NCBI GenBank assembly: GCA_020848835.1
Contig: JADLHJ010000011.1
Location: forward strand, 10,862-74,861
Reading direction: 5' to 3'
Length of the DNA: 64,000 bases
DNA from: Candidatus Hydrogenedentota bacterium
GTDB taxonomy: Bacteria > Hydrogenedentota > Hydrogenedentia > Hydrogenedentales > SLHB01
Positions 14,973 to 55,241 of the stretch are shown piece by piece (the first letter of the stretch is position 1; the number at the start of each line of letters is the position of its first letter). Made by a program: the position numbers and the translations under genes. Below the pieces are notes generated by a model, which was given only the letters and a program-made list of their open reading frames with translations, was not told the origin of the DNA and made no database searches.

Positions 14973-14983
14973 GTAGCAGTAAC

Positions 14984-24815: not shown

Positions 24816-24817
24816 GT

Positions 24818-27550
24818 TCACGCGCGCCTTAACTGCTGCCTGCGCTGGTAGGCCACCCACGCGAGCACAATACACACAACAACAATCAACGCCCACTCGT
24901 GTGGCTCCGGCACGCCGGGTATTGCCTCTTCGTTTTTCGTGGGATCAAGACCGTGCCGCGCGTATTGTTCCATCGTTTCAAGCACGACGGCGCCGGAGAG
25001 CGGCGTTACCAACCGCGCTTCAATGGCAACCTGACGGAGCGCGTCAATCTCGTTCGACTGGTGGCTCTGCACTGCTCGCATGACAGCATCATTCACGGCC
25101 AGTCGCACAAGATGGCTTGCAGGGGGCTCAATTGCGGTTTGCACCGCAGCGTCAGAGACACCCATGGCAAACTTCGCGGAAACGGATTCTGGGGATCGTA
25201 TTTTGACGACCTGCGAAATTGTTTCTTCCAACGATTCGAATATGGGCACACGCTCGATAATCGCGAGATCGCTGCATTGCTCCAATAAGCGGTTCGGCCC
25301 GGGGACGGCCTCTATCGAGAGTATCTTCACACTCGCGCCACCGCGTCTGCGCTCCCACTGCCGCAGTGGTTCAACGGAAGATAGTTCGACCGGCAACGGT
25401 CCATGAACCCAAATCACCGTACCGCCGCTACCCGCAATATCGCAGGCATGCACAAGCGCCGGCACCTGATCGCAACCGCCTACATACTCGCGCGACGCCA
25501 GCCACTCTCCCAGCGTGGTCGAAGGCGCTGACGATTTATCTTCATAAGTCTCGACCTTGCTTCCCGCAAGCACTGCATTAACATCGACGTCGTCAGGCAC
25601 AGACGACAGAATAGACTCCCAAGGGATGTTTGTATCGCGCATCGACGCCGATCCATCCACCACGAAGCATATCGGATGCTTGCTGCCCGCATTCGGCAAC
25701 TGGCGCGTCATCGTCGCTGATTGAGTTCCCAACGTACCGAGGAAAATATCGTCCGACGTATAGGAAGCAGATACATTGATCGTTCCAGCGTCTACGCGCT
25801 GAAGATCGTTTTCAGCCAATGCGCCGCGCAACGCAATACGCCCGGGCGCCGGCTCTTCCCACTGGAGCGATTTCGACGAAGCCTCGACACCGGCATCGCA
25901 TTCCACCCATACCCCATGTGAAAACTCCGGCGGAACCGTAAAATTGCGTTCGGAGATATACGGCAAACGCAGGTAGGATTTTCCGTCGCGCTCGACTATA
26001 GGCGCGGTAACGCCGATCTTCAGTTTCATCGTGCTGTGGGCATTGATCGGAAAACATTGCAGGAGCACCTTATCGGGACCGCACACATTTAGTAACGCAG
26101 GATCGCGCCGCTGCACGACTGCCACGCTTTGATACGCCTGGCGCACCTGGTCGCGCCCGCCAAACGCGGCTTCGCGTTCTTCCCCGTTAATCCAAAGCGT
26201 CAACCTGCTGGCAACGGCACCGTGCGGCAAGTCAATCTGTGCGCGGGCCTCGCGCTGCCTCCCGGACGCGTTGTTGAACTCAATCGTCCATTCCATATAG
26301 GCGAGGTGCGGCGATCCTTCCGCACCCAGGCGCATGATGTTTACATCCATCGTGCTCGCGTGCAGGGACAATCCGTGCACGCGGCCTGCAACACTGGTTC
26401 CGCCGATTTCGCTGTCAGTCACGCGAGCGTCTTCAAAATCCTCAGCCATCAGGGTGCGTGTACGAAACGTGCCGCGCGTGTCCGGTCGCGGCACGGCGTT
26501 ATATGGCACGCCTGTCACGCGAAAATACAAGTCGCGACAAGCGCCTTGGCGCGCAATGTCTTCGGCGGTCCAACGTCGCGTGGGCCCAATCCCGCGCACA
26601 ATCGGCGAATAACACGTCAACAACACCTGATGTTCGAGATGAAGGTTACGAATGAGGGCGATGCCGCGGTCGCGTTCAGAGGGATTCTCGCTCAGTGCCA
26701 TTGGAATCACTTGTGCGGCAATGAGCCGCGGCCCCGCGTAGATTGAACCCGCCGCAATCACCAACAGAGTGCCCGCAGCCGAATACCAGACTGCCTTAGC
26801 CCAGTGCGTGGAAGTTTCCGCGCGCAACCGGTAAAGCGCGCGCATTTGGAACAGGCCCGCAATGAGACAGAACAGCGGTGAAAAGCCCATTATCCCCAAG
26901 CCGAAAGCCAGAAGCGCAAAAACAGCGATCGGCAAAATAGGGATATACACCGCCGCATAAATCAGCGAGAGAGTTGTTGCGTATGCGTTGGCAAAAAATA
27001 CGGCGTTGTGCCAACGCGCGATCACCTGAGAACTTTCAGCGGGCTTGCGCGTAAGCATGTACAGGAAGACGTCTGTCGCAAGTATGGAAGCCAGCAGCAA
27101 GACGCCGGCGGCAAGGTGCCACGCGGTGGGAATCGGATCGGCGTACAACTCCGCCATGGCCCCCATCGAAAGCTCGAACATCAGGGAGAGCGCGGGAATG
27201 ACTAAACCACAGAGAATTACAAAACTGCGGCCGCTCACCGAATAGATCGGCCTCACTTTTTTCAACCGCTCCTCTACCGCAACGTGCGATCGCCCGTTGC
27301 CATTTGATCGCGCGACGCTATCGCCGGCGACGTCGGCAACCTGTTCTGGCGTGCCGATGCTGGCAATGGCATGTTTCACGTGGACGTCTGTGACGAGCAG
27401 TGGCGATTTACCTTCTGCTTCTGTGCGGATGTGTTGCTTCAGCCCGTCGACGATTTCGTCTGCGTCGTCGCCGTTTGCGCGCGACAACGCGTCTACCCGC
27501 GCGAGATATTCGTTCAGTTGCTTCTCGGCCTCGGGAGTCCATTGCGTCAT
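24818..27550 (-). CDS. HAAS(DUF1700)-like N-domain, multi-TM, VIT-like plus vWA, PEP-CTERM-tailed protein
   Basis: Residues 1-75 (AEKQLNEYLARVDALS...DEIVDGLKQHIRTE...IASIGTPEQVA) have the HAAS/DUF1700 pattern. About six TM helices at residues 105-285. VIT-like block at about 385-520 (TIEFNN, LWINGEE). vWA MIDAS DGSASM at 632-637. Terminal GVPEPHEWALIVVVCIVLAWVAYQRRQQLRRA is a PEP-CTERM-type sorting signal. Confidence 0.75.
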   Translation of the reverse strand: MTQWTPEAEKQLNEYLARVDALSRANGDDADEIVDGLKQHIRTEAEGKSPLLVTDVHVKHAIASIGTPEQVADVAGDSVARSNGNGRSHVAVEERLKKVRPIYSVSGRSFVILCGLVIPALSLMFELSMGAMAELYADPIPTAWHLAAGVLLLASILATDVFLYMLTRKPAESSQVIARWHNAVFFANAYATTLSLIYAAVYIPILPIAVFALLAFGLGIMGFSPLFCLIAGLFQMRALYRLRAETSTHWAKAVWYSAAGTLLVIAAGSIYAGPRLIAAQVIPMALSENPSERDRGIALIRNLHLEHQVLLTCYSPIVRGIGPTRRWTAEDIARQGACRDLYFRVTGVPYNAVPRPDTRGTFRTRTLMAEDFEDARVTDSEIGGTSVAGRVHGLSLHASTMDVNIMRLGAEGSPHLAYMEWTIEFNNASGRQREARAQIDLPHGAVASRLTLWINGEEREAAFGGRDQVRQAYQSVAVVQRRDPALLNVCGPDKVLLQCFPINAHSTMKLKIGVTAPIVERDGKSYLRLPYISERNFTVPPEFSHGVWVECDAGVEASSKSLQWEEPAPGRIALRGALAENDLQRVDAGTINVSASYTSDDIFLGTLGTQSATMTRQLPNAGSKHPICFVVDGSASMRDTNIPWESILSSVPDDVDVNAVLAGSKVETYEDKSSAPSTTLGEWLASREYVGGCDQVPALVHACDIAGSGGTVIWVHGPLPVELSSVEPLRQWERRRGGASVKILSIEAVPGPNRLLEQCSDLAIIERVPIFESLEETISQVVKIRSPESVSAKFAMGVSDAAVQTAIEPPASHLVRLAVNDAVMRAVQSHQSNEIDALRQVAIEARLVTPLSGAVVLETMEQYARHGLDPTKNEEAIPGVPEPHEWALIVVVCIVLAWVAYQRRQQLRRA

Positions 27551-27915
27551 GGTTTACCTTCCTTTTCCAACAAGCTGCCGATGTCGTTGGCCAATCCGCA
27601 CCAATAGGTCCGCATAGCATGCACGGTCCTACGTCCTTCATCGGTAAGAACGTAATATTTCCGCGCGGGACCGTTAGAGGATTCTTCGAGACGCGATGTG
27701 ATGAGGCCCGCACTGCGCAGGCGGGATAGGAGCGGATAAATGGTACCTTCGGTGATGACCAAAGCTTTGATGTTGGCGAGACGCTTCACTAGATCATAAG
27801 CGTACATCTCACCCTCGGCCAAAACGGCGACGATGCACAGCTCAAGCAATCCCTTCCGGACCTGGGTCACCCAATTGTCCAGGTCGAATGCAGTCGGCTT
27901 GGGCTCGGTATGCAT
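27547..27915 (-). CDS. PadR family transcriptional regulator
   Basis: Winged-helix motif LELCIVAVLAEGEMYAYDLVKRL...GTIYPLLSRLRSAGLI...KYYVLTDEGR. Overlaps the downstream gene by 4 nt (ATGA). Confidence 0.85.
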   Translation of the reverse strand: MHTEPKPTAFDLDNWVTQVRKGLLELCIVAVLAEGEMYAYDLVKRLANIKALVITEGTIYPLLSRLRSAGLITSRLEESSNGPARKYYVLTDEGRRTVHAMRTYWCGLANDIGSLLEKEGKP

Positions 27916-28036: not shown

Positions 28037-28672
28037 CTATTTGGTGCGTTTTCGAAGACCCATCGCAGCGAGTCCCAGGCCGAGCAATCCGACAGTGGCC
28101 GGCTCTGGAACCACGCAACCGTTTAGGCTACCGGCATAGACACTGTCGTCGCAGGGACCTTGAGTCCATTTTACTGCGGCTGTGTTGCAGGAGAAGTCGT
28201 GGCATCCGCCAGTTGGCAGACCGGTGAAAAAGTCGAGCGTATCTAAATTGCTGCCAGTGACGAGGAAAGTTACGGTCACATCGTTTCCATTGGTGAGACC
28301 CCAGTTTCCCCAACCCATGTCGAACTCGTAGTCGTAGGTGCCGAAGGGGCCTGCGGTGGAATTGGGAGTAAGCGATGTGTTCGAAAGCGGGCCGTCGCTG
28401 AGAATAGACATCGACGTTACGTCGCTCGACACATTGAAATACAATTCGGAGAGCGTATAGTCGTTCGGCCAACTGGTCTGGTTGAATATCTGCATCGTCA
28501 ACACATTGCTGCCGGCGTCGAAGCCCCAGATCACTTCGGCGTCAAACACGCCTGCGTTCGGCTGATCGTTATCGCTCAACTGCCCGCTAAACAGAATGAC
28601 TTCCGCGTTCGCGGATAATGTGGCAATGGCGATCAGCGCCAATGTCAGGATGGGTAAATAACGTGTCTTCAT
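28037..28672 (-). CDS. PEP-CTERM sorting-domain protein
   Basis: Signal peptide. C-terminal VPEPATVGLLGLGLAAMGLRKRTK. Confidence 0.8.
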   Translation of the reverse strand: MKTRYLPILTLALIAIATLSANAEVILFSGQLSDNDQPNAGVFDAEVIWGFDAGSNVLTMQIFNQTSWPNDYTLSELYFNVSSDVTSMSILSDGPLSNTSLTPNSTAGPFGTYDYEFDMGWGNWGLTNGNDVTVTFLVTGSNLDTLDFFTGLPTGGCHDFSCNTAAVKWTQGPCDDSVYAGSLNGCVVPEPATVGLLGLGLAAMGLRKRTK

Positions 28673-28968
28673 GGCAACAGCCCCCTACTACGTACTACTT
28701 GTGTAAGTTGCGATGGCAACTACTGGGTTGAGGGGTAACAATTCGAGTGCCAAGTGTTCGTTCAGAATGCCATCCGCATCAGGTTTGCGGTGGCATTGCA
28801 CGTAAACAGCGCTACGCACTCACGTTGGAAAAATTCGGAGTTCGACATATTTGTGATATGCGAAAAATAGCGTAACGGAGATTATTTTATGCAGTTTATC
28901 AATACACGCGTAAGGTTGTGCACGGGTGATTAATCTGTAAACCTACGTAAAATTAGCTACTTTCTTGA

Positions 28969-29032: not shown

Positions 29033-29815
29033 TTAGGCGCGTTTCATGCGACGGCGCAAACCGGCCGCGGCGAGGCCGAGTCCGAGTAACGCGAGGCTGG
29101 AGGGTTCGGGAACAACGACTTGCACGTCGCCTTCCGTAATCGCCCACTCTTCAAATCCGCCGTTGTTGTTCTCGTTCACGCCGAAAAGCGAGTAGAGATA
29201 AACATACTCATCCCCAGTTGCGAACACGCTGCTCGGAACATAGAACAGCATGTCGCCACTGCCGCTACCACTGTTGAGATTCGCATCAACGAGGATATAT
29301 GAATCTTCCACTGCGTCAAGGTCGTAAACGAGCGTAGAGTCCGCCAAGTCGATAATGCCGGCTGTAAATGTCTCCGCACTCTGATTCGGCGTGCCCGACG
29401 TGAAGATCTGAATCTCATCCAGCGAAATAAAGGAGTCGCTACCCGACTGGTTCACGTCCAGAATAAATTCGCGATACTCGACACCATCGATTACGACAAC
29501 CGGGATATCCGTCAGTAAAAGTTCATGGTTGAAGTTGTCAGGCGCACCATTGTCGAGCGTTCCGTTTTCGGTGGTGTTATACGCCTGAACCGTGTCCGTA
29601 TTATTACCGATCTGCACAAAGCTATCGATCGTTCCAGTACCTGTTGCCTGCCCGTCCCACTGAAGAAACAAGGCGCCATTGACTTCGCCTTCGGACCCTA
29701 CAGTTGTAAGATCGACGGTTTCTGCTGAAACGACACCGGCGAAGGCCAACGCGCTCAGCATTAGAATTGTTGATTGAATTCCTCGCCGCATACTCATTTT
29801 CATCATCCTTTGCAT
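29033..29815 (-). CDS. PEP-CTERM sorting-domain protein
   Basis: C-terminal VPEPSSLALLGLGLAAAGLRRRMKRA. Signal peptide after MQRMMKMSMRRGIQSTILMLSALAFAGVVSA. Several in-frame ATGs lie between 29789 and 29815. Confidence 0.8.
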   Translation of the reverse strand: MQRMMKMSMRRGIQSTILMLSALAFAGVVSAETVDLTTVGSEGEVNGALFLQWDGQATGTGTIDSFVQIGNNTDTVQAYNTTENGTLDNGAPDNFNHELLLTDIPVVVIDGVEYREFILDVNQSGSDSFISLDEIQIFTSGTPNQSAETFTAGIIDLADSTLVYDLDAVEDSYILVDANLNSGSGSGDMLFYVPSSVFATGDEYVYLYSLFGVNENNNGGFEEWAITEGDVQVVVPEPSSLALLGLGLAAAGLRRRMKRA

Positions 29816-30129
29816 TGTGACACTTAGCAGCTCGCCCACACTGCGGATGAATGAGCAAACCGCATGCCGAAGGCTAATAACGGGCTTTGTACGCCGAAAT
29901 ATTGCTACGGAAATGTAAAAGGAACGCGCCAAGGCGAGTGACAACAATATCTTAGGAAAAACATAGGGGTATTGCCGGAAGGCGTAGGAAATCGTAGCGA
30001 AAACTCGTAGGAAATCACAACTGCATGCGATAAAGCCGACAAAGCCCTGATAAAGGTTATTCAGCGTTGCACAATAGTTTCATAGTATAGTTGTATATAT
30101 AAACAAATCAACCGCCCAAATCAATTCTA

Positions 30130-38314: not shown

Positions 38315-41300
38315 ATGTCACACTTTTGCCCCGCCATGGCACATGATAGGTGCAAGGAGACAAGGGCAGTGCTGGGTATTGCGCGAAATAACGATGTTGA
38401 GCTGATCCGGAGGACACTGTCAGGACAACGCGACGCGTTTGGTTTGCTGGTGGATCGCTATCTGCGTTTTGCCTATGCCATCGCGTACGCACGGGCGCAC
38501 TCGCGTACGGATGCCGACGACGTTGTCCAAGACTCCTTCCTCACCGCTTACCAGCAACTGAATACCCTTCGCGAACCCGCACGGTTCTCCGCGTGGCTGG
38601 CCACGATCGTGCGCAGGTTGTCTGGAAAATCGAACCAGCGCGCGCGACTCGCCGAGTCGGCGGAATCAGCCGCGGCGCCAAGCGAGTTAGTCCATCCAGA
38701 ACACGAACGCGATGAACTCCGCGCACTTATCCGCACGGAAGTACAAGCGTTGGATGAATCGGACCGCGAAGTCATTCTGCTCTGCTACTTCGCAGGCAAG
38801 TCCGCGGGCGAAATTGCAGCGGCACTGGATTCTACCCCCGCGGCGATTCGTAAACGCCTCCAGCGCGCCCGCGAAAAACTCGGCGAGCGGCTCCTCTCGT
38901 CCATCGCTGAAACGTCCAAACCAAATACTGACGCAAACAAACAGATCATGGGCGTTATCGCTGCGGCGCCTACAGTGTGGAACGTGACAACGTCCAGCAC
39001 AGGCGTGTTAACAACAGGAGGCGCATTTGCAATGAAAGTCGCGGCCGTTTTAGCAGTGGTTCTGGCTCTGGGCGGCGGCGCCTACAGTTTGCGCAACCGG
39101 AGTCTTGACGCAAATAAGCCGTCCGCGCCAACGCAATACGCAAAAACTTCTTCGACTTCTGCCCCCAGACAAGTGCCGAAAGCTGATACTGAAGTCGCGA
39201 CAAATGAAGCAGATAAAGCCGCAGATAAATGGGTATCCGTCGCTCCTAAATATCCCTTTCGCTTCGAAGCTATTGTGCTCGATCCGAATGGAGAGATTGC
39301 GGTAGACGTTCCGGTCCAAATCAGAGTGCTCGAAAGATACTCGCCATCCTTCAATGGGACGGATAGGGTCATTGCCGAAGCTTCCGTGAGAAGCGACGAA
39401 AACGGTTGTGTTGTTGCGCAACTAGAGAGCGGGCCGCAGTCAGATCAAGGCTATGTCTACATCGAGCTCTCTGCGCAACGAGATACTACAGGCCGCTATA
39501 CAAAAGCGATGTTTTCACAGTCAACAACGAGACTCTACGCGCTTCAACTCATATCATTGGGAACCATTCGCGGACTGGTGCGAGATGCTCTGGGCAACCC
39601 CATCGAGAATGCTCGCATAGAACCACGCGCCTACGATCGTCCAGATGGTCAATCTCACATGTATCAATGGAACGAAAGCGGCGTCGTCACTGCCAATGAC
39701 GGCACTTTTAGAATTGACCACCTGTACGCTGGTCGTTGGCAATTCCAAATCATTGCCGACGGTTTCGCGCCCAAGTTGACCGAGTTCATTCCGACCGAAT
39801 CAAACCTTGAGATAACGCTGGATCCGGGTCTTCGTCTGGCAGGAACGCTCATCGACGACGCTTCTGGAAACGTAGCTCCCAACGTACGCTTGCAACTCTC
39901 TTCGAAACAGATGTGGCAGGAGCGACATCAATCGACTACAGACTCGAATGGCCACTTTACCTTTTCCTCGCTGAGCAGTGGTGTGTATCAATTGAATACA
40001 GATGATCACCCCCACTACATCGCGCTGGAGCAAAGCGAAATCACAGTGCAGAATTCGGTCGAAGACTTGGCGATTCACCTTGAAACTGGTGGAATCATCA
40101 CTGGCCAACTTGTTGATGCGGATTCGCAGAAAGGCATTGCGGGCACAAAAGCCGTGGCGAATCTTACTGCGTCATCGCAAACGAAACACCCAAGAAACCG
40201 TTCGGAGGCCACGACGGACAAAAACGGGAATTATCAAATTGAAGGACTTCCCTCGGGCGAATATAAGGTGATGTTCTGGTCACCCGACGCGTTACCTAAA
40301 GCAACACCAGAATCAATCCAATTGATGCCCACTACGAACATTGCGGCGGGCAAGACGGTCGAGTTACATGCCCACGCCATTGACCGCCGAAACCAAATTC
40401 GAGGTAATGTGCGCACGATAGACGGCAAAGCCATTCAAGGGATATATGTCTTCGCAGTCGCCCTCGATCATCCGGAGTGGTACGACCCCACCATTATTTC
40501 TTTCAACGGCGTGAGGACCGATGAACACGGTACATTTGTAATTTATCTTCCCGGGACTTCGCAAAACACTTTCGTTATTGCAAGAGGTCTTGGATTTGCC
40601 ACTCGAGAATCAGGCCCGTATATCGTCCATGGCCAGCCAGACGATGCGATAAATCTCATCGCATATCCCGTTGGCCGAATACTTGGTCAGGTAATCGATT
40701 CGCGCGGCGCACGAATTTCCCGGGCACGGTTTACATACCGGGGATCGGCTTCGCCGTTGCAGCAGACCAACACCAAACCCGGTTCTTCCAATAGTTTGAA
40801 TAGACTGCTTGAACGAGATCAATTATCCGAAGACGGTAATTTTTATCTTACGAATCTTCCTCCTGACACTTACACCTTTGAATACAAAGGAAGTTCGACA
40901 TCCGCAACTCTCGAACAAGCCAAGACGCTTCGAAGTTTTAGTATTTCGGCGGCCCCTTTGGGTAGCGCGATCCTTTCTGGAAACGTCACGATCAAGAAGG
41001 TAGCGGCAGAAGACGTGCTCATTCAGATATTGGGAGGGACCGAAGGAAGCAGTAGTGAGACTAAAACCAATGCCTATGGAAACTTTTCACAGGTTGATAT
41101 GCCCGAAGGCGAATATAATCTAATCATAAATTGCCGGGACGACGCAGACGGTGCGCGCATTGTGCGTCGTTCATCTACAAAAGTGACTCTTCCCGCGTCA
41201 GGCACGACGACGCTCAATACGGACTTCGCAACGGGTGATTGTGGAATCGAGGGACATATTAAAGAGAATGGGAAAGCGGTACGCGCCGAATTTTACATGG

Positions 41301-41833
41301 TTGAAGCGCTGCCAGATGATCGAGACGAGACAATTAGCGTTACGGCAAATGACAAGGGATACTATCGCGTGACGGGACTGAGGCCCGGTGAGCACGTAAT
41401 TCGGCTAATGCGGAAGGCCCCTTCCGATCCGAATCAACGTTACGAAACACCTTTCAAAGTCGAACTGCAATCCGGCCAAATACTGAACCATGATATTTCG
41501 TTTGGTACGGGTTCGATAGTAGCGGCGTGCTCGGGCGTACGCGCCGGGTTTGATGGACGACTTCTAATTGTACCGGGAGAGAACAATACCGAAAACATGA
41601 CGCTGTTAGGCGCGTATTCGCTAATTGAAAAGGCAATCTATGACAAAGAAATCACAACGGACGAAACACTAATCGCGAAAGAGGTGCCGGAAGGACCTTA
41701 CACAGTCTTGTGGGCAACTTACGATGCAAAGGCTGAAACCGATGAAGCGCGTTTCGCCTCGACCGAGTTCATAGCCGCGATAGCGATTGTGGAAACGGGA
41801 CAGGAAACAAAGATGCAGCTTTCGCTTCGTTGA
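38315..41833 (+). CDS. ECF sigma-70 factor fused to a TM helix and a large extracytoplasmic CarboxypepD_reg-like repeat region
   Basis: Sigma region 2 (VVQDSFLTAYQQL). Region 4 HTH (LDESDREVILLCYFAGKSAGEIAAALDSTPAAIRKRLQRAREKL). A TM helix MKVAAVLAVVLALGGGAY at about residue 240. About 900 aa follow with repeated GxxxGxVxDxxGxPI blocks. Confidence 0.7.
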   Translation: MSHFCPAMAHDRCKETRAVLGIARNNDVELIRRTLSGQRDAFGLLVDRYLRFAYAIAYARAHSRTDADDVVQDSFLTAYQQLNTLREPARFSAWLATIVRRLSGKSNQRARLAESAESAAAPSELVHPEHERDELRALIRTEVQALDESDREVILLCYFAGKSAGEIAAALDSTPAAIRKRLQRAREKLGERLLSSIAETSKPNTDANKQIMGVIAAAPTVWNVTTSSTGVLTTGGAFAMKVAAVLAVVLALGGGAYSLRNRSLDANKPSAPTQYAKTSSTSAPRQVPKADTEVATNEADKAADKWVSVAPKYPFRFEAIVLDPNGEIAVDVPVQIRVLERYSPSFNGTDRVIAEASVRSDENGCVVAQLESGPQSDQGYVYIELSAQRDTTGRYTKAMFSQSTTRLYALQLISLGTIRGLVRDALGNPIENARIEPRAYDRPDGQSHMYQWNESGVVTANDGTFRIDHLYAGRWQFQIIADGFAPKLTEFIPTESNLEITLDPGLRLAGTLIDDASGNVAPNVRLQLSSKQMWQERHQSTTDSNGHFTFSSLSSGVYQLNTDDHPHYIALEQSEITVQNSVEDLAIHLETGGIITGQLVDADSQKGIAGTKAVANLTASSQTKHPRNRSEATTDKNGNYQIEGLPSGEYKVMFWSPDALPKATPESIQLMPTTNIAAGKTVELHAHAIDRRNQIRGNVRTIDGKAIQGIYVFAVALDHPEWYDPTIISFNGVRTDEHGTFVIYLPGTSQNTFVIARGLGFATRESGPYIVHGQPDDAINLIAYPVGRILGQVIDSRGARISRARFTYRGSASPLQQTNTKPGSSNSLNRLLERDQLSEDGNFYLTNLPPDTYTFEYKGSSTSATLEQAKTLRSFSISAAPLGSAILSGNVTIKKVAAEDVLIQILGGTEGSSSETKTNAYGNFSQVDMPEGEYNLIINCRDDADGARIVRRSSTKVTLPASGTTTLNTDFATGDCGIEGHIKENGKAVRAEFYMVEALPDDRDETISVTANDKGYYRVTGLRPGEHVIRLMRKAPSDPNQRYETPFKVELQSGQILNHDISFGTGSIVAACSGVRAGFDGRLLIVPGENNTENMTLLGAYSLIEKAIYDKEITTDETLIAKEVPEGPYTVLWATYDAKAETDEARFASTEFIAAIAIVETGQETKMQLSLR

Positions 41834-41839
41834 GGCGAA

Positions 41840-43528
41840 TCAATCAATCCCTTCTCGCTTCATCAGACGCCACAATGTCGTGCGGCCGATGCCGAGGAGT
41901 TCGGCGGCTTCGGAGCGATTGCCGCGGGTTCGTTTGAGCATGGCGCGGAGCACGTCGCCATTGAGTTCTTGTGAGGGCCGTACTGAACGGAACGATATGA
42001 TTTCTTCGGGCAGGTCTTCGATACCGAGCTCGCGGTTCGGCCCGAAGACGACGGAGTGATCGATCGTATTCTTGAGTTGCCGTAGATTCCCTGGCCACGC
42101 ACAGTCAAGCAAGGCCTGCTTGAACTCCTTCGAGAACTGCGCAGCGGGACGATCATATTTGTCCCGCGCGTCTACCATGAACAAGTGCGCGAGTGGAAGC
42201 ACGCAATCGAGGCGATCGCGCAGAGGCGGCACATCGATGCGGCCGATGGCGATTGCGTAGTAAAGGTCCTCGCGGATTTTACCGTGCGCCAATTGCGTCT
42301 GCGGATCGTACTGCGTCGCGGCAATCACGCGGATATCCGCCTTTGCCGGCTCTTCCGAACCGAGCGGTGTGACAATCTTATCCTCCATTGCCCGCAACAA
42401 CAGGCCCTGCGCTTCAGGCGTCAGGTGCGTGATCTCGTCGAAGTAGATCGTACCCTTGTTTGCCCGGGCCAGCGCGCCCACGTGTCCTCGCGACGCGCCT
42501 TGAAAAGCACCCTGCGCAAACCCGGCGAGCTCTTGTACCAACAACGATGCGGCCAGCGATCGGCAATCGACGACTTCGAAAGAACCCGCCTTACGCCCAC
42601 TGGCGAGATGGATCGCCTTGGCGAGGGTGGCACGGCCCGTCCCCGGTTCGCCGACGATGAGTACTGGCACGTCGGATACCGCGACCTGCTTGGCGCGGCG
42701 CATCACCGCCTGCATATTCTCGGAATCTGCAATGAGACTGTCTAGCAAGAGGTCGCTTTTGAGCCTGCGCTGCAACGCTTGTAGCGCAGCGTTCGAGCGG
42801 CTTGCCGCTTCTCTGTATTGGTTCGCTTGCTCGTCGCGGGCGGCGAAATCAACCTCGATGGAATCCGTCTTGAACGCATTCCGCGCCCAGTCGGCCTCTT
42901 CGCCCCATTCGTTCTCGAACCGCGCCAGAATCCGGCAAGGGCCTTTGTTGGAGGCTGCGCAGGACTTTTCCAAGGCAATGACCCTGCGCCCGAGGACTTC
43001 CGAGGTATGGCCCGCCAGGTAACCGCAGGTTGTCCAGCAGACCGATTCGGCAGGTTCGGTGGTGACGAGGCGGTGGACGGTGGCTTCCGTACAAGATTGG
43101 AGGGCGATTTCCCTGTAAAGTGTATTTGACTCCAGGTCGTACTCGAATCGGACAGGTTCCGCGACTACTTTTCCCAGCATTTGGGCGAAAACGCAGACAG
43201 CCTGGAGCGCCAAACGCACATTCCCCTCGTATTGCTCCAGGTGACGAAGCGCGTCGCGGCGGCCTTGCTCGAAGCCTATCCGGTAGAAAAGGGCGCGGGC
43301 CCTATCTCGTCCCAGCATTTGGAGGATTTGGCGGCGTTGAACTGCCATAGACTCGACATCTTCAAAGACGCCGACCCGCCCCATGAAGCTGACCTTACCC
43401 GAGGGAGGGCTGGTCTCTATCCAACTGGTTCGGGTGTTTTCGAGGTAGTGGCCGAGAACGGGTGGTAAATCGAGGAAGACTTGTGCGCTAAGACGGGTCG
43501 GACGCTTGATCATGTGGTGTGCCCCCAA
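41840..43528 (-). CDS. sigma-54-dependent transcriptional activator with XylR-N/V4R-like sensor (no receiver domain)
   Basis: AAA+ core VLIVGEPGTGRATLAKAIH and GAFQGA box. C-terminal Fis HTH AAELLGIGRTTLWRLMK. N-terminal about 230 aa resemble the XylR/DmpR sensor. Confidence 0.8.
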   Translation of the reverse strand: MGAHHMIKRPTRLSAQVFLDLPPVLGHYLENTRTSWIETSPPSGKVSFMGRVGVFEDVESMAVQRRQILQMLGRDRARALFYRIGFEQGRRDALRHLEQYEGNVRLALQAVCVFAQMLGKVVAEPVRFEYDLESNTLYREIALQSCTEATVHRLVTTEPAESVCWTTCGYLAGHTSEVLGRRVIALEKSCAASNKGPCRILARFENEWGEEADWARNAFKTDSIEVDFAARDEQANQYREAASRSNAALQALQRRLKSDLLLDSLIADSENMQAVMRRAKQVAVSDVPVLIVGEPGTGRATLAKAIHLASGRKAGSFEVVDCRSLAASLLVQELAGFAQGAFQGASRGHVGALARANKGTIYFDEITHLTPEAQGLLLRAMEDKIVTPLGSEEPAKADIRVIAATQYDPQTQLAHGKIREDLYYAIAIGRIDVPPLRDRLDCVLPLAHLFMVDARDKYDRPAAQFSKEFKQALLDCAWPGNLRQLKNTIDHSVVFGPNRELGIEDLPEEIISFRSVRPSQELNGDVLRAMLKRTRGNRSEAAELLGIGRTTLWRLMKREGID

Positions 43529-43697: not shown

Positions 43698-44579
43698 TCA
43701 TTTTGTGGGTGCCGATTCCGTCTGCTTCTTGAGGCGGAGGTGGCGTTTCTTCATTCCGCTGAGGATAATCCAGAGGATGATGCCCGCCACTGAAGCGGCA
43801 AGTGCCATCACCTGCTGATCCGTGAGGCCGAAAAGGTGAACCGGGTTGCCGTCGTCGCGGAGCATTTCGATGCCAAAGCGGCCGATTCCGTAGAAGATGA
43901 AGTAGTAACAGGCGGTAGAACCGTGAAAGGGACGGCAGTACTTGCGAAGAGTAATTAATAATATACACAAAAACAATAGGCCGGCGCTGCTGTAAAGCTG
44001 TGTGGGGTGTACGTGATAGGACCATTGATCGACTGCGGGGTCGAGGCCGAAGCGGTGTACATGGTCCATGAACGCCGGGCTGCCTGTATAGGACTTCGTG
44101 GTGTCAAAGGGCACACGGGGAAAGCTGATCCCCCAGGGGACATCCGTGCGGGCACCGTAGCAACAGCCGTTGAGAAAGCAGCCGAGCCGACCGATTGCAT
44201 GGCCCAGTGCAAGGCAGGGTACGGCGAGATCGGCGAGCGTCCAGAAGGGCATCTTGTGCTTGCGCGTCCAGTAATAAAGAAACGCAACGGCAGGCGGAAT
44301 GGCGCCCTGGAAGACGAGTCCCCCATTCCAGATCGCGAACCAGCCGAGCGGGTCACGCCATGAAAAGTCCTCCGGGAACATCATGATAAAGGCCACGCGG
44401 GTCCCGGCGATGGCGAGCAACAAGACCCAGAATGCGGCATCGGCGATCTTATCGGGGTCAAGGCCGTACTTGGGAGCGTGGCGGCGCGCGAGGAAAAGGC
44501 CTGCGAGAAATCCAAGGGCGAGCATTAGCCCATAGGAATGGACAGGAAGAGGACCAAGCTTCAAAAGGACAGGGTACAT
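43698..44579 (-). CDS. lgt: prolipoprotein diacylglyceryl transferase
   Basis: MYPVLLKLGPLPVHSYGLMLALGFLAG start. Lgt signature region around GRLGCFLNGCCYG. Confidence 0.85.
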   Translation of the reverse strand: MYPVLLKLGPLPVHSYGLMLALGFLAGLFLARRHAPKYGLDPDKIADAAFWVLLLAIAGTRVAFIMMFPEDFSWRDPLGWFAIWNGGLVFQGAIPPAVAFLYYWTRKHKMPFWTLADLAVPCLALGHAIGRLGCFLNGCCYGARTDVPWGISFPRVPFDTTKSYTGSPAFMDHVHRFGLDPAVDQWSYHVHPTQLYSSAGLLFLCILLITLRKYCRPFHGSTACYYFIFYGIGRFGIEMLRDDGNPVHLFGLTDQQVMALAASVAGIILWIILSGMKKRHLRLKKQTESAPTK

Positions 44580-45438
44580 GCGTAGTTCCTAAACGGTTAA
44601 ACCACTCCGCACGATGACGGGGATTGAAACGAAGATGTTACTGCGTCGGGGTGTGGGGTGTCGATTTTTTGGTTCGGATTGATGCCATCGCGTTGCATTA
44701 CACATACCTTACCTATTTGGATGTCGCTTTTTTGACTTCTACGCGGTCGGTGGATTGTTAACAGCCTCCGCGAAAGACGGCGCCAGTTCCCTGTACAACG
44801 TCCGGCGCGGAGACCGGACGCTACACCAAGCACGTTGGACACGGAGGGGGGTGTGAAGAACTTTTTTCTGACGAAACAATGGGGGGTGATCTTTCTTTTT
44901 TTTTTGACGATTCAAGGGGGTGGTGAGCGAAAAAAACCTCATAACTCCTGATTCTACGGTCGAGGGTGAGGTGACACCCCCAGGGGGTGTCGTGGGGGTG
45001 CAGGCGGTGGTTGCGTGGAAGGAAGATAATGATGACGTGGGTTGCGTGGTCGCGCTCCCCCGCTTTGGCTGGCGGTTTGCATGCGTATTGGGATGCATTG
45101 GATTTCATTTGTTTAGGCTCCTGTCTGCATTCGGCGGTATTTATTTCCTGGCTCCTATTTTGCGCGTTTGGGCACGCGGGGGCATCGTCCGGCGCGAAGG
45201 CTGGACGCTACGACGAGCGAACCAAGACCGCGTAAACTCGGAATTACGAACCTGACTCGTTTCGACGGAAGACCGCTTCAACGCGGAACTCCGAACCGAA
45301 CTCGATGCGTACGAAGTCTGCGGCGGAAGTGGAACGGTGCACACTCTATAGCCCAGCGCGTTGTACTCTGGACGGGGCGTGTCAAACTGCGGACATTCTT
45401 ACCTCACGCGAAGACGGCGTGAAGGACGCTATACTGCG

Positions 45439-45789
45439 CGAATGCGAATTCGGATTGTCAGCACTCCACAAGGCGAAGCGCCGGAAGAAGTCCGGAGGGG
45501 TTGGATTGGGCTGGAATTGCCGCTGCCGCCAAAGTTCAATGGTCCCGCGACTTTTCTTGGAACAAGCGTTCTTGCTGCGCCTCAGAACTGGATTGGGCAG
45601 ATAATCGCCATGCTGACCGGACGTGCGAGAATACGCACGGGATACAGCGTGGAAACCTCAGACGCGCTTCGCCTGCTGGTGCGACACAACCCGGACGCCG
45701 CGGAGTGGTGGTACAAGAACACACCGCGACTAGTTCATCCCGGGCGCTATTTCGTGTTCGCAGCCGATTGTTGCGAAGAAGTGGAGTGA
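45439..45789 (+). CDS. hypothetical protein (weakly supported)
   Basis: 116-aa ORF MRIRIVSTPQGEAPEEVRRGWIGLELPLPP...WWYKNTPRLVHPGRYFVFAADCCEEVE with balanced composition. No recognisable domain. It overlaps the convergent downstream gene by about 40 nt. Confidence 0.3.
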   Translation, partial: RMRIRIVSTPQGEAPEEVRRGWIGLELPLPPKFNGPATFLGTSVLAAPQNWIGQIIAMLTGRARIRTGYSVETSDALRLLVRHNPDAAEWWYKNTPRLVHPGRYFVFAADCCEEVE

Positions 45790-46572: not shown

Positions 46573-47505
46573 TCATTTTATGAGTAGAGAAATATTGGGT
46601 AGGTTGCCCTCGAAGGACACGTGCCCATCCAAATACAACACATTCCCGCCTTCAGCATTTGTCGTGCAGTTAAACATTACTGGAATGGACTTCTGTAAGA
46701 AATCCGGCCCCGCCGCCGGACCGTTGATGTCGGTAACAAGGAAGCGCGCGACGCCTTCCTTCAGGCGGTAGTAATATTTTCCATTCCATTCCAAATGGTC
46801 ATCCAGTTGCTGCGGATTTACCCGGCGCGCGTTGGAGAGCGTCTCCAACTCTGAAACGTCTAGCATTCCCCAACCGGTATAGGTGTAGCTCTGCGCTGCG
46901 ATACGCGTAATGGCTTCCCAATCTGTCGGTGTCTGTGATACGAGCGCGTTGAGTTTTTTGACCAATTCCTCTGCGTCCGGCCGATTGGGGTTTACAAGAA
47001 CGGCAAGGTCTGTAAGATATTCCGGGTACACTGCGCGGAGATCAAACATCCAAACATCGTTATACGGCGCCATGGGCGGGTACTTTTCCCCGGGATCATC
47101 GCTCGCATACATTTTGAACACAATGCCGAGCTGTTTGAGATTATTTTGATCGCTGGCACGGCGGGAAGCCTCACGAGCCTGCGGCAGAAGAAGTGTACTA
47201 AGCATCGCGATCACGCAAAGCGTCAACAACAGCGTCGCCAACCTCAGGCCGCGATCGGTGCGTTTCACAGCTTCGGCATGGGCCGCCTCATTCACTGCGG
47301 CAACGGTGGATTTCGCGAGACCGAGCGGGGCTTGTTCTTCAGGCAGCGAACCGAGCACATCGAGCATACGACGTTCATGCGCAAGTGCTTCTCGCCACTC
47401 AGCAGATTCCGCAAGGTGTCGATCAACCACCACGCGTTCTGACGGTGAAAGTGTCTCAAGCAGGTAGCCACGTACCAGCCTTGATTGAACGTCGTGCTCT
47501 GTCAT
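46573..47505 (-). CDS. anti-sigma factor (zinc-less ASD) fused via TM helix to a DUF1559-like ectodomain
   Basis: N-terminal LVRGYLLETLSPSERVVVDRHLAESAEWREALAHERRML equals the anti-sigma HLAxCxxCRxEL motif with the Cys replaced by Ser/Trp. TM LRLATLLLTLCVIAMLSTLLLP. Then SDQNNLKQLGIVFKMY...GGNVLYLDGHVSF. 4-nt overlap (ATGA) with the upstream ECF sigma gene. Confidence 0.65.
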   Translation of the reverse strand: MTEHDVQSRLVRGYLLETLSPSERVVVDRHLAESAEWREALAHERRMLDVLGSLPEEQAPLGLAKSTVAAVNEAAHAEAVKRTDRGLRLATLLLTLCVIAMLSTLLLPQAREASRRASDQNNLKQLGIVFKMYASDDPGEKYPPMAPYNDVWMFDLRAVYPEYLTDLAVLVNPNRPDAEELVKKLNALVSQTPTDWEAITRIAAQSYTYTGWGMLDVSELETLSNARRVNPQQLDDHLEWNGKYYYRLKEGVARFLVTDINGPAAGPDFLQKSIPVMFNCTTNAEGGNVLYLDGHVSFEGNLPNISLLIK

Positions 47506-52680: not shown

Positions 52681-52863
52681 GGCCTAGACTCGCTCACATT
52701 AATTAATTGTATCACCAAAGCGGCTCTGTGACATGTTCGCGTGTTCAGAATTTATTCACCGCTGACCAACTTGTGACCCTTATTTCGTGTATTTTTCAAT
52801 CCTTCCATTTATCACATCTTCTTAAGTATATGTGTTTCATGGACTTGATGAACACAACATATA

Positions 52864-52879
52864 TGGCTCAAAACTTGCT
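52864..52879 (+). promoter_or_regulatory. sigma-54 (-24/-12) promoter upstream of PEP-CTERM gene 52953
   Basis: TGGCTC-AAAAC-TTGCT: GG and GC at exact consensus spacing (TGGCAC-N5-TTGCA). About 74 nt upstream of the ATG, in an AT-rich leader. Confidence 0.5.
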
Positions 52880-52952
52880 ATCCTACAAGTGGTGGTAAGG
52901 GTCAAATCTGCTGGTTCTGCGGATTTGCCAATATTGATGCAAGGAGAATCTG

Positions 52953-53630
52953 ATGAAATTCCGCTTTTTATTTGGCGTGGTGCTGGTCGCCGTCGCGTGC
53001 TTTGCGCCTGCCGGCGCTGAAGTCATTTATGACAACGGGGATTCCATCCAGTCAATTGGTTTGCCTGGGATTGATCCCTTTTTCATGCCCGCAGATAATT
53101 TCGTGCTGCAAACTGGCGCAAGCACAATCACGGAGTTCCATTGGACGGGTTATTACGCATTGAATGAAGTCGATAAAGTTGTTCCTATCGACGATTTCAC
53201 CGTCTACATTTTCGCGGACAATGGGGGCAGCCCGGGCACCCAACTTTTCAGCTTCGATGATGCCGTGACCGCCACCGCGACCGGCACAAATGCCTTGGGT
53301 ATTTTTCCCGAGTATGAATATGTGATGGCGATTGATCCCTTGGCGCTCACCGCGGGTACAACGTACTGGATCGGAATCCTGAACGATATTACGTTTCCGG
53401 ATCCTGTTAAGGGCGTAACTCCTGTTCAAAACGCTTGGTTCTGGTCTACGTCGCAAGTACAGACTGGCGATGCGCACCAAAAGTTTGTGACCGCCTGGCT
53501 TGACGCGAATGTTGAATTGGCCTTTGACTTACACGGTCCCGGCGTAGTCCCAGAGCCTGCGACGATGACATTGCTGGGTGCTGGACTCGTGGCGATCGCA
53601 GCGCGCCGCAGATTCATGCGCGGGAAATAG
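52953..53630 (+). CDS. PEP-CTERM sorting-domain protein
   Basis: Signal peptide. C-terminal VPEPATMTLLGAGLVAIAARRRFMRGK. Paralog of 54426..55076 (shared DVIYDNGD and FHW motifs). Confidence 0.8.
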   Translation: MKFRFLFGVVLVAVACFAPAGAEVIYDNGDSIQSIGLPGIDPFFMPADNFVLQTGASTITEFHWTGYYALNEVDKVVPIDDFTVYIFADNGGSPGTQLFSFDDAVTATATGTNALGIFPEYEYVMAIDPLALTAGTTYWIGILNDITFPDPVKGVTPVQNAWFWSTSQVQTGDAHQKFVTAWLDANVELAFDLHGPGVVPEPATMTLLGAGLVAIAARRRFMRGK

Positions 53631-53646
53631 TGCGCTCGAAAATGTG

Positions 53647-53687
53647 ACCGCCGCCGTTGTTGAATACGGCGGCGGTTTTTTATTTTC
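53647..53687 (+). terminator. rho-independent terminator
   Basis: ACCGCCGCCG-ttgttgaata-CGGCGGCGGT followed by TTTTTTATTTT. Confidence 0.6.
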
Positions 53688-53697
53688 GATTACTTTT

Positions 53698-54123
53698 TTA
53701 ATCCGGGATCTCGACCTTAAGTTCGCCATTTTCGATCTGGACCTTGTAGCGGCATAGACCGTCCTTTGGGTCTTCATCGCAAAGCTTTACGTCAAAGCTC
53801 CATCCGTGCCAGGGACACGTTACCTCGGTGCCGTCCAACCACCCGTCCGACAAGGGTCCCCCGGCGTGCGGGCAGGAATCGCTGACGGCGTAAAACGCGC
53901 CATCAATGTTGAAGACAGCAACGCGGTGTTTGCCGCAGGTAAAGGCTTTGCCTTCCCCGTTGGGTATCTGGTTCGCGCTGCCGATTGGGACAAGTTCGGG
54001 CATGGGTACCTCACATTGTTTGTTGAAGGCGGCAATCTTATTCGAGCCGGGTATTGTACGTCCAATCGCCACTATCTGAACTATTGTACAATTTAATTTA
54101 CTACTTTCTTTTTCTTGAGACAA
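53698..54123 (-). CDS. Rieske [2Fe-2S] domain protein (NirD-like small subunit)
   Basis: CPHAGGPLSDG ... CPWHGWSFDV Rieske ligands. 141 aa. Confidence 0.75.
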   Translation of the reverse strand: MSQEKESSKLNCTIVQIVAIGRTIPGSNKIAAFNKQCEVPMPELVPIGSANQIPNGEGKAFTCGKHRVAVFNIDGAFYAVSDSCPHAGGPLSDGWLDGTEVTCPWHGWSFDVKLCDEDPKDGLCRYKVQIENGELKVEIPD

Positions 54124-54348
54124 CTGTCAATTATTTACTTCGGCCTGCATAGCATGGGCTGAGCAAAACTCCCGATAGTTATGAAAATAATGCCCCAACT
54201 GCCAAGTTAATCACTTGACAATTTTACTATTAAGTGTTCTTCAATTGTGATTACTTTTGAATCATCGTTAAAAAAACAATTTCAAAGGTGTCCCACAAAG
54301 CGATTTGTAAATCATTGAAAATAAACGACTTGCAAATCATTTTTCGCG

Positions 54349-54364
54349 TGGCATATATATTGCT
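54349..54364 (+). promoter_or_regulatory. sigma-54 (-24/-12) promoter upstream of PEP-CTERM gene 54426
   Basis: TGGCAT-ATATA-TTGCT with perfect GG/GC spacing. About 62 nt upstream of the ATG, in a ~300-nt AT-rich leader. Confidence 0.55.
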
Positions 54365-54425: not shown

Positions 54426-55076
54426 ATGACAAAGACACTAGCGCGCATGGCGATGGTTGTCCTCCTGCTGCTCGGCGCTGTGTCGAGTCAGGCGGACGTC
54501 ATCTATGACAACGGAGATCCTTCGGGATACATCGCTCCGACGAGCAGCTATCTGCTCACGATTCTGGATGACTTTGAACTTGAGACGGGTGCATCGACCG
54601 TTACCGATTTTCATTGGTATGGCGCGTACTATGGTGATGTTCCCGCCGAAGACGATTTCACGCTGTACATCTTCGACGAAAACTTCAACCTTGTAACCGA
54701 GATCGATGGCAGCGGCACCACGCGCACTGCGACCGGTGAAACCGTTGACGTTCCGGTCTTTGGCGGCGACTACGACGAGTATTACTACGAACTCTTCGTG
54801 GATCCGATCAACCTCACGGCAGGTTCGACCTATTACCTCGGTATCGCCAATGCCAATAATGCAGCGTGGGCCTGGGAAGGTACCGACAATGTGTTCGACG
54901 GTTTTGCGCTTTGGTATCAGCCGGAAAACGAATTTGAAGACGTCGGCCTGGGTGACTTCTCGTTCCAGATCACTGGCGACGGTACGACCGGCGTAGTTCC
55001 GGAACCGGCTTCGATGACGCTGCTTGGCCTTGGCTTGGTGGTAGTCGCCGCGCGCAGGAAGTTTTCGCGCAGCTAA
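54426..55076 (+). CDS. PEP-CTERM sorting-domain protein
   Basis: Signal peptide. C-terminal VPEPASMTLLGLGLVVVAARRKFSRS. Confidence 0.8.
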   Translation: MTKTLARMAMVVLLLLGAVSSQADVIYDNGDPSGYIAPTSSYLLTILDDFELETGASTVTDFHWYGAYYGDVPAEDDFTLYIFDENFNLVTEIDGSGTTRTATGETVDVPVFGGDYDEYYYELFVDPINLTAGSTYYLGIANANNAAWAWEGTDNVFDGFALWYQPENEFEDVGLGDFSFQITGDGTTGVVPEPASMTLLGLGLVVVAARRKFSRS

Positions 55077-55094: not shown

Positions 55095-55133
55095 GAGCGC
55101 CCTCGGCCTTGCGCCGGGGGCGCTTTCTTTTTG
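55095..55133 (+). terminator. probable rho-independent terminator
   Basis: GC-rich hairpin GAGCGCCC...GGGCGCT followed by TTCTTTTTG. Confidence 0.5.
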
Positions 55134-55241
55134 CGCGTTGCTGGAATCCCGCGTCGCGTTTATGTTGTTATAGTGCTTATCCACGTCATTTCTGGGAAGA
55201 ATTTTGTTTGGCCCTTCGGGCCGTAAGGAAGGAGACGATAG

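Follow-up and report, generated by a model that had tools for sequence, protein, structure and literature searches.

Predicted sigma-54 promoters and a conserved upstream palindrome in front of PEP-CTERM genes of a Hydrogenedentes genome

PEP-CTERM proteins and exosortases are thought to build the proteinaceous fraction of the matrix in biofilms and flocs. The stretch of DNA analyzed here, 64,000 nucleotides of contig JADLHJ010000011.1 from a Candidatus Hydrogenedentota bacterium (referred to as the window), contains four PEP-CTERM genes, g1 to g4, each of which is preceded by a candidate sigma-54 promoter and, farther upstream, by a match to an 18-bp palindrome. The gene g1 (52953-53630, plus strand) encodes a 225-aa protein in which a signal peptide and a beta-sandwich domain precede the PEP-CTERM anchor. 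The protein matches PF07589 with 30.6 bits, which is above the cut-off, passes the cut-off of TIGR02595 as well, and is 100% identical to a protein from a Hydrogenedentes metagenome-assembled genome (MAG) at NCBI. Its AlphaFold model (pLDDT 81) consists of a signal helix, an all-beta sandwich, and a C-terminal anchor helix, and a Foldseek search of the cargo domain against the PDB gave no significant match. The gene g2 (54426-55076, plus strand) encodes a 216-aa paralogue that shares 42% identity with the g1 protein. Two more genes, g3 (29033-29797, minus strand; 254 aa) and g4 (28037-28672, minus strand; 211 aa), encode proteins of two further families that are distinct from the g1/g2 family, a PepA-like one and a third one, respectively. 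The g2, g3, and g4 proteins also pass the PF07589 and TIGR02595 cut-offs, and the PepA model is matched weakly by g1 and g3.

The gene order radical-SAM / g1 / Rieske / g2 / SOD is kept in several Hydrogenedentes contigs. Both g1 and g2 are monocistronic: a strong intrinsic terminator is located behind each gene, at 53646-53685 (plus strand; a GC-rich 12-bp stem and then a T-run) for g1 and at 55095-55135 (plus strand) for g2, and no sigma-70-like promoter was found on the coding strand of either leader. The leaders are AT-rich, with 40% GC for g1 and 37% GC for g2 compared to 56% across the window. In the g1 leader lies the -24/-12 element TGGCTCAAAACTTGCT (TGGCTC-AAAAC-TTGCT; 52864-52879, plus strand), with its GG at 52865-66 and its GC at 52877-78, and in the g2 leader lies TGGCATATATATTGCT (TGGCAT-ATATA-TTGCT; 54349-54364, plus strand). 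The GG-N10-GC spacing is exact in both elements, and the -12 C is 75 nt from the ATG at 52953 in g1 and 63 nt from the ATG at 54426 in g2.

When the roughly 128,000 positions of the window were scored with a sigma-54 matrix, the g2 element took rank 1 (score 16.0) and the g1 element rank 2 (15.1). Rank 3 (15.0) is held by the candidate promoter of g3, TCGGCATGCGGTTTGCTC (29853-29870, minus strand; core CGGCAT-GCGGT-TTGCT), which is 58 nt before the ATG, and rank 6 (12.7) by a sigma-54-like promoter of g4, TTGGCACTCGAATTGTTA (28736-28753, minus strand; core TGGCAC-TCGAA-TTGTT), which is 66 nt before the ATG. Each AT-rich intergenic region was also shuffled by itself with its composition kept, and the observed score was reached in 3/2000 shuffles for g1, 2/2000 for g2, 4/2000 for g3, and 15/2000 for g4 (p about 0.001-0.008 per region). 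The first-pass annotation, which was made from the letters of the sequence, had described g1 and g2 as paralogous PEP-CTERM genes behind exactly spaced -24/-12 elements in AT-rich leaders. That description holds, including its positions, and the ranks and shuffles place both elements above background. It did not contain g3 and g4, which have the same architecture, nor the exosortase gene described below.

The same elements could in principle be functionless chance matches in AT-rich intergenic DNA. The bare pattern TGGC-N7-TTGCW is not significantly over-represented in the window (3 found versus 1.66 expected), and GG-N10-GC alone is common there and uninformative by itself. This explanation is left with next to no probability by the top matrix ranks, the shuffles, the constant spacing to the ATG, and the invariance among orthologues, and it is effectively refuted by the conservation data that follow. 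At each of the orthologous loci (numbered with an L below), the 300 nt in front of the PEP-CTERM gene have their best matrix match 63-88 nt from the ATG, and this match takes one of the ranks 1-3 in its locus. In an alignment of 8 orthologous and paralogous upstream regions with a mean identity of 52%, neither the -24 GG nor the -12 C..TGCT varies, and the flanks diverge around them. This invariance of the core holds in orthologues down to ~50% protein identity, and conservation of the promoter extends over 17 further sites from other loci. The g2 promoter is conserved in L031, L025, and L040, and the sigma-54 core is conserved likewise in the metagenomic relatives L038 and L040. The promoters of the g3 orthologues rank 1 in L054, L056, and L058, and the g4 core, including its GT, is identical in the L054 orthologue, where the flanks have diverged. 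The distance between site and ATG is 55-88 nt in the Hydrogenedentes sites and 114 nt in L038.

Sigma-54 matches are also concentrated in front of PEP-CTERM genes, an enrichment for which the first-pass annotation had suggested a scan. In Hydrogenedentes-type DNA, 8/9 PEP-CTERM genes versus 1/105 other genes have a match of 12 bits or more in the 200 nt preceding them (Fisher 1.5e-10), a count that includes orthologues, which are not independent of one another. A profile search of contigs with the full alignment was drawn to the common PEP-CTERM peptide; most of the loci that it brought up were unrelated, and only L001 and L002 were useful. The single non-PEP-CTERM gene with a strong site encodes a 395-aa protein with no Pfam domain (L026, 4872-6059) and is located directly downstream of a g1 orthologue. 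Its sigma-54-like site TCGGCAAACTTCTTGCTT (4783-4800) is 71 nt before the ATG, and the palindrome is absent from its upstream region.

The palindrome, TTnnTCA-N4-TGAnnAA (18 bp), was grown from the TCA-N4-TGA columns of the upstream alignments, which are invariant in the 8-sequence alignment that includes g1. An inverted repeat of this kind had been proposed for a search in the first-pass annotation, and it is present upstream of both g1 and g2. The g1 copy, TTATTCACCGCTGACCAA (52752-52769), is a candidate enhancer (upstream activating sequence) and the sole perfect match to TTNNTCANNNNTGANNAA in the window. The g2 copy, likewise a candidate enhancer, is TTCTTCAATTGTGATTAC (54237-54254). Measured from its centre to the first G of the -24 GG, the palindrome lies 104.5 nt upstream in both cases and in most g1/g2 orthologues. 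The g3 palindrome, TTATTCAGCGTTGCACAA (30057-30074; 1 mismatch), is centred 197.5 nt from the GG, and the g4 palindrome, TTAATCACCCGTGCACAA (28916-28933, minus-strand reading; 1 mismatch), is centred 173.5 nt from it. With at most 1 mismatch there are 4 matches in the window versus 1.4 expected, and each of these is upstream of one of g1-g4. In 181 kb of Hydrogenedentes-type DNA, 20/22 palindrome matches are upstream of PEP-CTERM genes.

As g1 and g2 were the source of the pattern, the matches at g3 and g4 and at their orthologues constitute an independent test. The g3 orthologues in L054, L056, and L058 have palindromes with 0 mismatches at 198.5, 177.5, and 212.5 nt, respectively, and for the g4 orthologue in L054 the palindrome is at 172.5 nt. 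The palindromes of L054, L056, and L058, with no mismatch or one, are present despite surrounding DNA that cannot be aligned, and the genomic context of L056 is different as well. The palindrome also occurs upstream of L038 and L040. It is always paired with a sigma-54 site located 105-212 nt downstream. The half-sites recur in the g2 leader, with a spacer of 2 nt between them, as TTAATCACTTGACAAT (54207-54222), a second site that is 31 bp from the g2 palindrome when measured between centres. The block to which this site belongs is 100% conserved in L031 and L025, and a similar N2 variant, TTAATCAATTGACAG, is found upstream of L022 gene A. Between the g1 palindrome and the g1 promoter there is an AT-rich block, TCTTCTTAAGTATATG (52817-52832, plus strand), that contains invariant T..TAA columns in the 8-sequence alignment. 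It reads TAA-N4-TTGA(A/T) in orthologues, which resembles the reverse of the consensus of integration host factor (IHF), and may be a bending (IHF-like) site.

Taken together, their position, their conservation in orthologues, the enrichment, and the conserved inverted repeat indicate that the g1 and g2 elements are very probably genuine sigma-54 promoters, each serving one of the two monocistronic PEP-CTERM paralogues. The textbook picture of an enhancer for an AAA+ activator is one of dyad symmetry and of a varying distance, here 105-212 nt, to a -24/-12 promoter downstream. The variable distance between palindrome and promoter fits an enhancer rather than an operator, and we read the palindrome, from its sequence and placement, as the likely enhancer of a Hydrogenedentes PEP-CTERM regulon. 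It could instead be the site of another regulator, such as a repressor or a protein acting on the divergent genes, with the sigma-54 promoters being real and the activator sites located elsewhere in the leaders. Other conserved blocks are indeed present in the leaders, the g1 and g2 palindromes are in divergent intergenic regions, and the radical-SAM gene starts ~70 nt from the g1 palindrome, which is close to a sigma-70-like match at 52734-52706. The g3 and g4 genes argue otherwise. Their upstream neighbour is co-oriented, as is that of the orthologues in L054 and L058, so no divergent promoter is present and the palindrome is unlikely to serve one. Additionally, because the g3 and g4 families differ from the g1/g2 family, the common denominator is the PEP-CTERM class and no particular neighbour; PEP-CTERM is the sole gene class that all 20 of the upstream matches share. 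With the constant co-occurrence of a sigma-54 site downstream and the variable distance that is typical of enhancers, a role of the palindrome other than that of an enhancer is considered unlikely.

We consider it probable that each of g1-g4 is a monocistronic enhancer-dependent sigma-54 unit, and that together they form a Hydrogenedentes PEP-CTERM regulon whose activator is encoded outside the window. Sigma-54 RNA polymerase would bind the -24/-12 element 55-80 nt before the start codon and be held there as a closed complex. A dimeric AAA+ enhancer-binding activator would bind the palindrome, at a distance from the -24 GG of 105 nt (g1 and g2) to ~200 nt (g3 and g4), oligomerise, and contact the polymerase by looping of the AT-rich spacer, possibly aided by a bending protein. 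The promoter would then be opened through ATP hydrolysis by the activator. The products would be exported, and the exosortase encoded at 23334-24896 would process their PEP-CTERM anchors. The motifs, with their positions, conservation, and enrichment, are observed in the sequences, and dependence on sigma-54, binding of an activator to the palindrome, looping of the DNA, and processing by the exosortase are inferred. The regulon would work like that of PrsK/PrsR but with a different enhancer sequence, and its activator is presumably a protein with an intact GAFTGA loop.

Several points weigh against this interpretation. No rpoN and no canonical GAFTGA-bearing activator was found in the 64 kb among the open reading frames (ORFs) scanned with Pfam, which were most but not all of them. 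The sigma-54 matrix is an approximation of the Barrios et al. consensus and was not taken from a curated file, and the dependence among orthologues bears on the enrichment count. The -12 element of g4 reads GT and not GC. The distances between palindrome and promoter show no helical phasing between the families. The g1 and g2 palindromes are located beside the divergent radical-SAM and Rieske genes and, taken alone, could have a role at divergent promoters. Lastly, the g1 transcription start at about 52889-52891 is a position predicted from the sequence.

A protein that resembles a sigma-54 activator is nevertheless encoded in the window. The enhancer-binding protein (EBP)-like regulator at 41840-43528 (minus strand) is composed of XylR_N, a weak V4R, Sigma54_activat (PF00158, 162.7 bits), AAA_lid_14, and HTH_8 (PF02954, 43.6 bits) and has no receiver domain, as the first-pass annotation had described. 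Its best sequence match in the PDB is CapR (6iy8, E = 4e-63), and it scores 229 bits against TIGR02915, the cut-off of which is 502.6. That annotation had also put this protein forward as the activator. In this explanation the protein would sense a small hydrophobic ligand, bind the palindrome, and activate the sigma-54 promoters. It is the only Sigma54_activat protein among the Pfam-scanned ORFs of the window, it has the HTH_8 domain for DNA binding, its Walker B DE and arginine finger are intact, and its orthologues are found in genomes or contigs that also carry g1 orthologues. However, an alignment with CapR, NtrC1, and ZraR places GAFQGA at the GAFTGA position, and the Walker A motif, GEPGTGRAT, has Arg in place of Lys and fails the pattern GxxxxGK(S/T). 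Among 121 relatives the Thr position of GAFTGA is occupied by Pro in 75, by Gln in 18, and by Ala, Ser, or Glu in the others, and Thr was found in 0/121. The Walker A residue is Arg in 65 and Lys in 53 of these relatives, and the Walker B Asp is replaced by Asn or Ser in 62/121. Homologues with an altered GAFTGA, such as TyrR, DhaR, HupR, and VpsR, are classed as non-functional with sigma-54 (PMC3162934; PMC6158489), and Francke et al. determined that Thr-to-Pro is the preferred substitution in them (PMC3162934).

The genomic distribution of this family points in the same direction. The conserved neighbour of the EBP-like gene is lgt, which is directly upstream of it in the window and in L036. 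In GCA_013359265.1 the EBP-like orthologue and the g1 orthologue are on different contigs, and in a JGI contig the two are more than 20 kb apart. No palindrome was found at the EBP-like gene or at the orthologue loci L035 and L036, where it was looked for as a sign of autoregulation. The degenerate GAFTGA and Walker A motifs, the linkage to lgt, the separate contig, and the loci without a palindrome make the protein at 41840-43528 an unlikely activator of the PEP-CTERM genes, and we give this role of the first-pass annotation's candidate a low probability. The family comprises at least 140 clusters at E <= 1e-60, mostly of 555-557 aa, and is annotated in Hydrogenedentes as 'sigma 54-interacting transcriptional regulator'; judged by its motifs, it probably does not interact with sigma-54 despite this name. 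A bolder version, in which the Hydrogenedentota PEP-CTERM regulon is independently wired around a palindromic enhancer specific to the phylum and the widespread, lgt-linked XylR_N/V4R family acts as activator with sigma-54 through a non-canonical GAF(Q/P)GA loop, is judged quite improbable. If true, it would overturn the rule that the Thr of GAFTGA is indispensable.

Other features were observed around this gene. A 1172-aa protein encoded at 38315-41833, whose gene is convergent with the EBP-like gene, consists of an extracytoplasmic function (ECF) sigma factor (regions 2 and 4) fused N-terminally to repeated CarboxypepD_reg/prealbumin-like domains. The ~780 nt upstream of lgt (44580-45360) have no convincing ORF and contain a direct repeat of 36 nt that harbours a hairpin (44796-44831 and 45183-45218), two tandem copies of a 45-nt unit (45224-45313), and G-rich GGGGGTG motifs. 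Rfam gave no match in the window at the gathering threshold or in 44400-45500 at a relaxed E-value threshold. A sigma-54-like match at 45065-45082 (score 14.8) was considered as a divergent target of the EBP-like protein and was rejected, with neither a palindrome nor a convincing downstream gene being present.

Additional elements are located in the leaders. The 5' untranslated region of g1 contains a hairpin at 52903-52927 (plus strand; CAAATCTGC / GCGGATTTG) that was obtained from ViennaRNA folds of all g1-type leaders. A hairpin of differing sequence is found at the same position in L018, L026, and L022, with z-scores from single-sequence folding that are mostly weak, and it may be an mRNA-stabilising or regulatory structure. 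The g1-type leaders also have a conserved GTGGTG motif close to the predicted +1. In g2-type promoters only, a conserved ACTTRCAAA block (54328-54340, with counterparts at the aligned positions of L031 and L025) immediately precedes the -24 element; in the window it is part of two GAYTTGYAAATC near-palindromes that are 26 bp apart. The block may be the site of a second regulator.

The presumed sorting enzyme for the PEP-CTERM cargo is an exosortase of the EpsH family encoded at 23334-24896 (minus strand; PF09721, E = 1.2e-16). With this enzyme the sorting system is complete. The exosortase reached the cut-off of none of the NCBIfam Xrt subtypes and may represent an unclassified one. Its gene is downstream of a PadR gene and of a gene for a 910-aa HAAS/VIT protein with a PEP-CTERM-like tail, and the PadR regulator (27547-27915), the HAAS+VIT protein (24818-27550), and the exosortase appear to form a minus-strand operon. 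The similarity of the HAAS+VIT protein to XrtN-system cargo stays below the cut-off (149 versus 250 bits). The PadR protein was considered as a binder of the palindrome and was rejected, as the variable and distant position of the palindrome is unfit for a repressor operator. Elsewhere in the window, the region 9591-16411 encodes a 1793-aa multihaem PSCyt1/PSCyt2/PSD1 protein and then a DUF1501 protein, a combination that is typical of Planctomycetes, and a DUF1559 protein (46573-47505) is a second marker, usually associated with Planctomycetes, that is present in this Hydrogenedentes genome.

The regulation of PEP-CTERM genes has so far been understood only in Proteobacteria, where it involves PrsK/PrsR and sigma-54. 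The architecture described here, which is expected in principle, would fill a stated gap by extending sigma-54 control of these genes to Hydrogenedentes with a new palindrome. It suggests a testable cis-regulatory code of palindrome and -24/-12 promoter that is common to three unrelated cargo families in Hydrogenedentota, an uncultured phylum associated with wastewater and sediment. The code could be used for listing the regulon in Hydrogenedentota MAGs, for the search for the activator by phylogenetic profiling, and for the building of reporters. Additionally, the 'sigma-54-interacting' annotation of the EBP-like family is flagged for correction.

The systems to which these results can be compared fall into several groups. 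The EBP-like protein has the same domains as the XylR/DmpR/CapR family (XylR_N, V4R, AAA+, and HTH_8, without a receiver). It differs from that family in its GAFQGA and its Walker A Arg, in the absence of Thr from all 121 relatives, and in the conserved position of its gene beside lgt and not beside catabolic operons. In the degenerate loop for sigma-54 contact the EBP-like family is similar to TyrR, DhaR, HupR, VpsR, and Caulobacter NtrC, homologues without GAFTGA that act without sigma-54 (PMC3162934; PMC6158489; bioRxiv 10.1101/2023.06.06.543975), and the ATPase motifs of many of its members are degenerate as well. The window copy differs from these homologues in that it retains the Walker B motif and the arginine finger.

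Classical sigma-54 promoters include glnAp2 with NtrC, nifH with NifA, and Pu with XylR and have the consensus TGGCAY-N5-TTGCT. The promoters of g1-g4 share with them the GG-N10-GC core, a dyad site 100-200 bp upstream, and an AT-rich spacer that possibly contains a bending site. The sites of three classical activators are TGCACC for NtrC, TGT-N10-ACA for NifA, and GTCA-N6-TGAC for FleQ. The half-site of the palindrome is unlike these sites, and the targets here are surface-anchored cargo proteins.

The closest comparison is with the PrsK/PrsR/PrsT regulon. A study by Haft et al. in 2006 determined that a sigma-54 motif is present upstream of 99/167 proteobacterial PEP-CTERM genes, 71 +/- 38 nt before the ATG, and that it is paired with a 17-nt motif 1, ending in TTTACA, that is 63 +/- 11 nt upstream of the sigma-54 motif (PMC1569441). 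The genes form single-gene operons with long leaders, the motif pair was linked to PrsK, PrsR, and PrsT, both motifs were found in Proteobacteria only, and other regulators outside Proteobacteria were still to be found (PMC1569441). RpoN dependence has been determined by experiment for Aquincola pepA, for which the start site was also mapped (PMC9850573), and binding of PrsR has been demonstrated for DVUA0057 of Desulfovibrio vulgaris (PMC3333781). In the library that was searched, no paper was found that connects Hydrogenedentes with PEP-CTERM, exosortase, or sigma-54 regulation.

The promoters of g1-g4 could be driven by an ordinary PrsK/PrsR system, the PrsR orthologue of which would be encoded in another part of the genome. 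In overall architecture and in distance to the ATG the units agree with those reported in 2006, and g1 and g3 match the PepA model weakly. TTTACA occurs 63, 63, and 35 nt upstream of the sigma-54 site in L039, L053, and L049, which are metagenomic homologues of the g1 family. The spacing in L039 and L053 equals the figure of Haft et al. for the proteobacterial PrsR box, and the g1 cargo family thus appears under two different enhancers. In the window the evidence is against such a system. Motif 1, judged by its TTTACA ending, is absent from the leaders of g1 and g2 and of their orthologues, and the one TTTACA at g3, 43 nt upstream of the sigma-54 site, is not conserved in L054, L056, and L058. 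The box is restricted to Proteobacteria according to Haft et al. (PMC1569441), the window encodes no PrsK, PrsR, or PrsT, and its sole EBP-type protein has no receiver and reaches 229 of the 502.6 bits noted above. We regard an ordinary PrsK/PrsR system as highly improbable for these genes. The claim of the first-pass annotation that the system differs from PrsK/PrsR is therefore supported by the absence of motif 1 and is not borne out with respect to the XylR_N/V4R protein, given its GAFQGA and Walker A Arg.

Under the reading preferred here, that of a Hydrogenedentes regulon with its own enhancer, both systems consist of single-gene PEP-CTERM units with long leaders and a sigma-54 motif ~70 nt before the ATG. 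Both have a conserved motif farther upstream as the presumed activator site and an exosortase in the genome. They differ in phylum, Hydrogenedentota here and Proteobacteria there, in the genes for PrsK, PrsR, and PrsT, which this window does not encode, and in the upstream motif, which is an 18-bp palindrome at 105-212 nt here compared to a 17-nt TTTACA motif at ~63 nt in the proteobacterial regulon.

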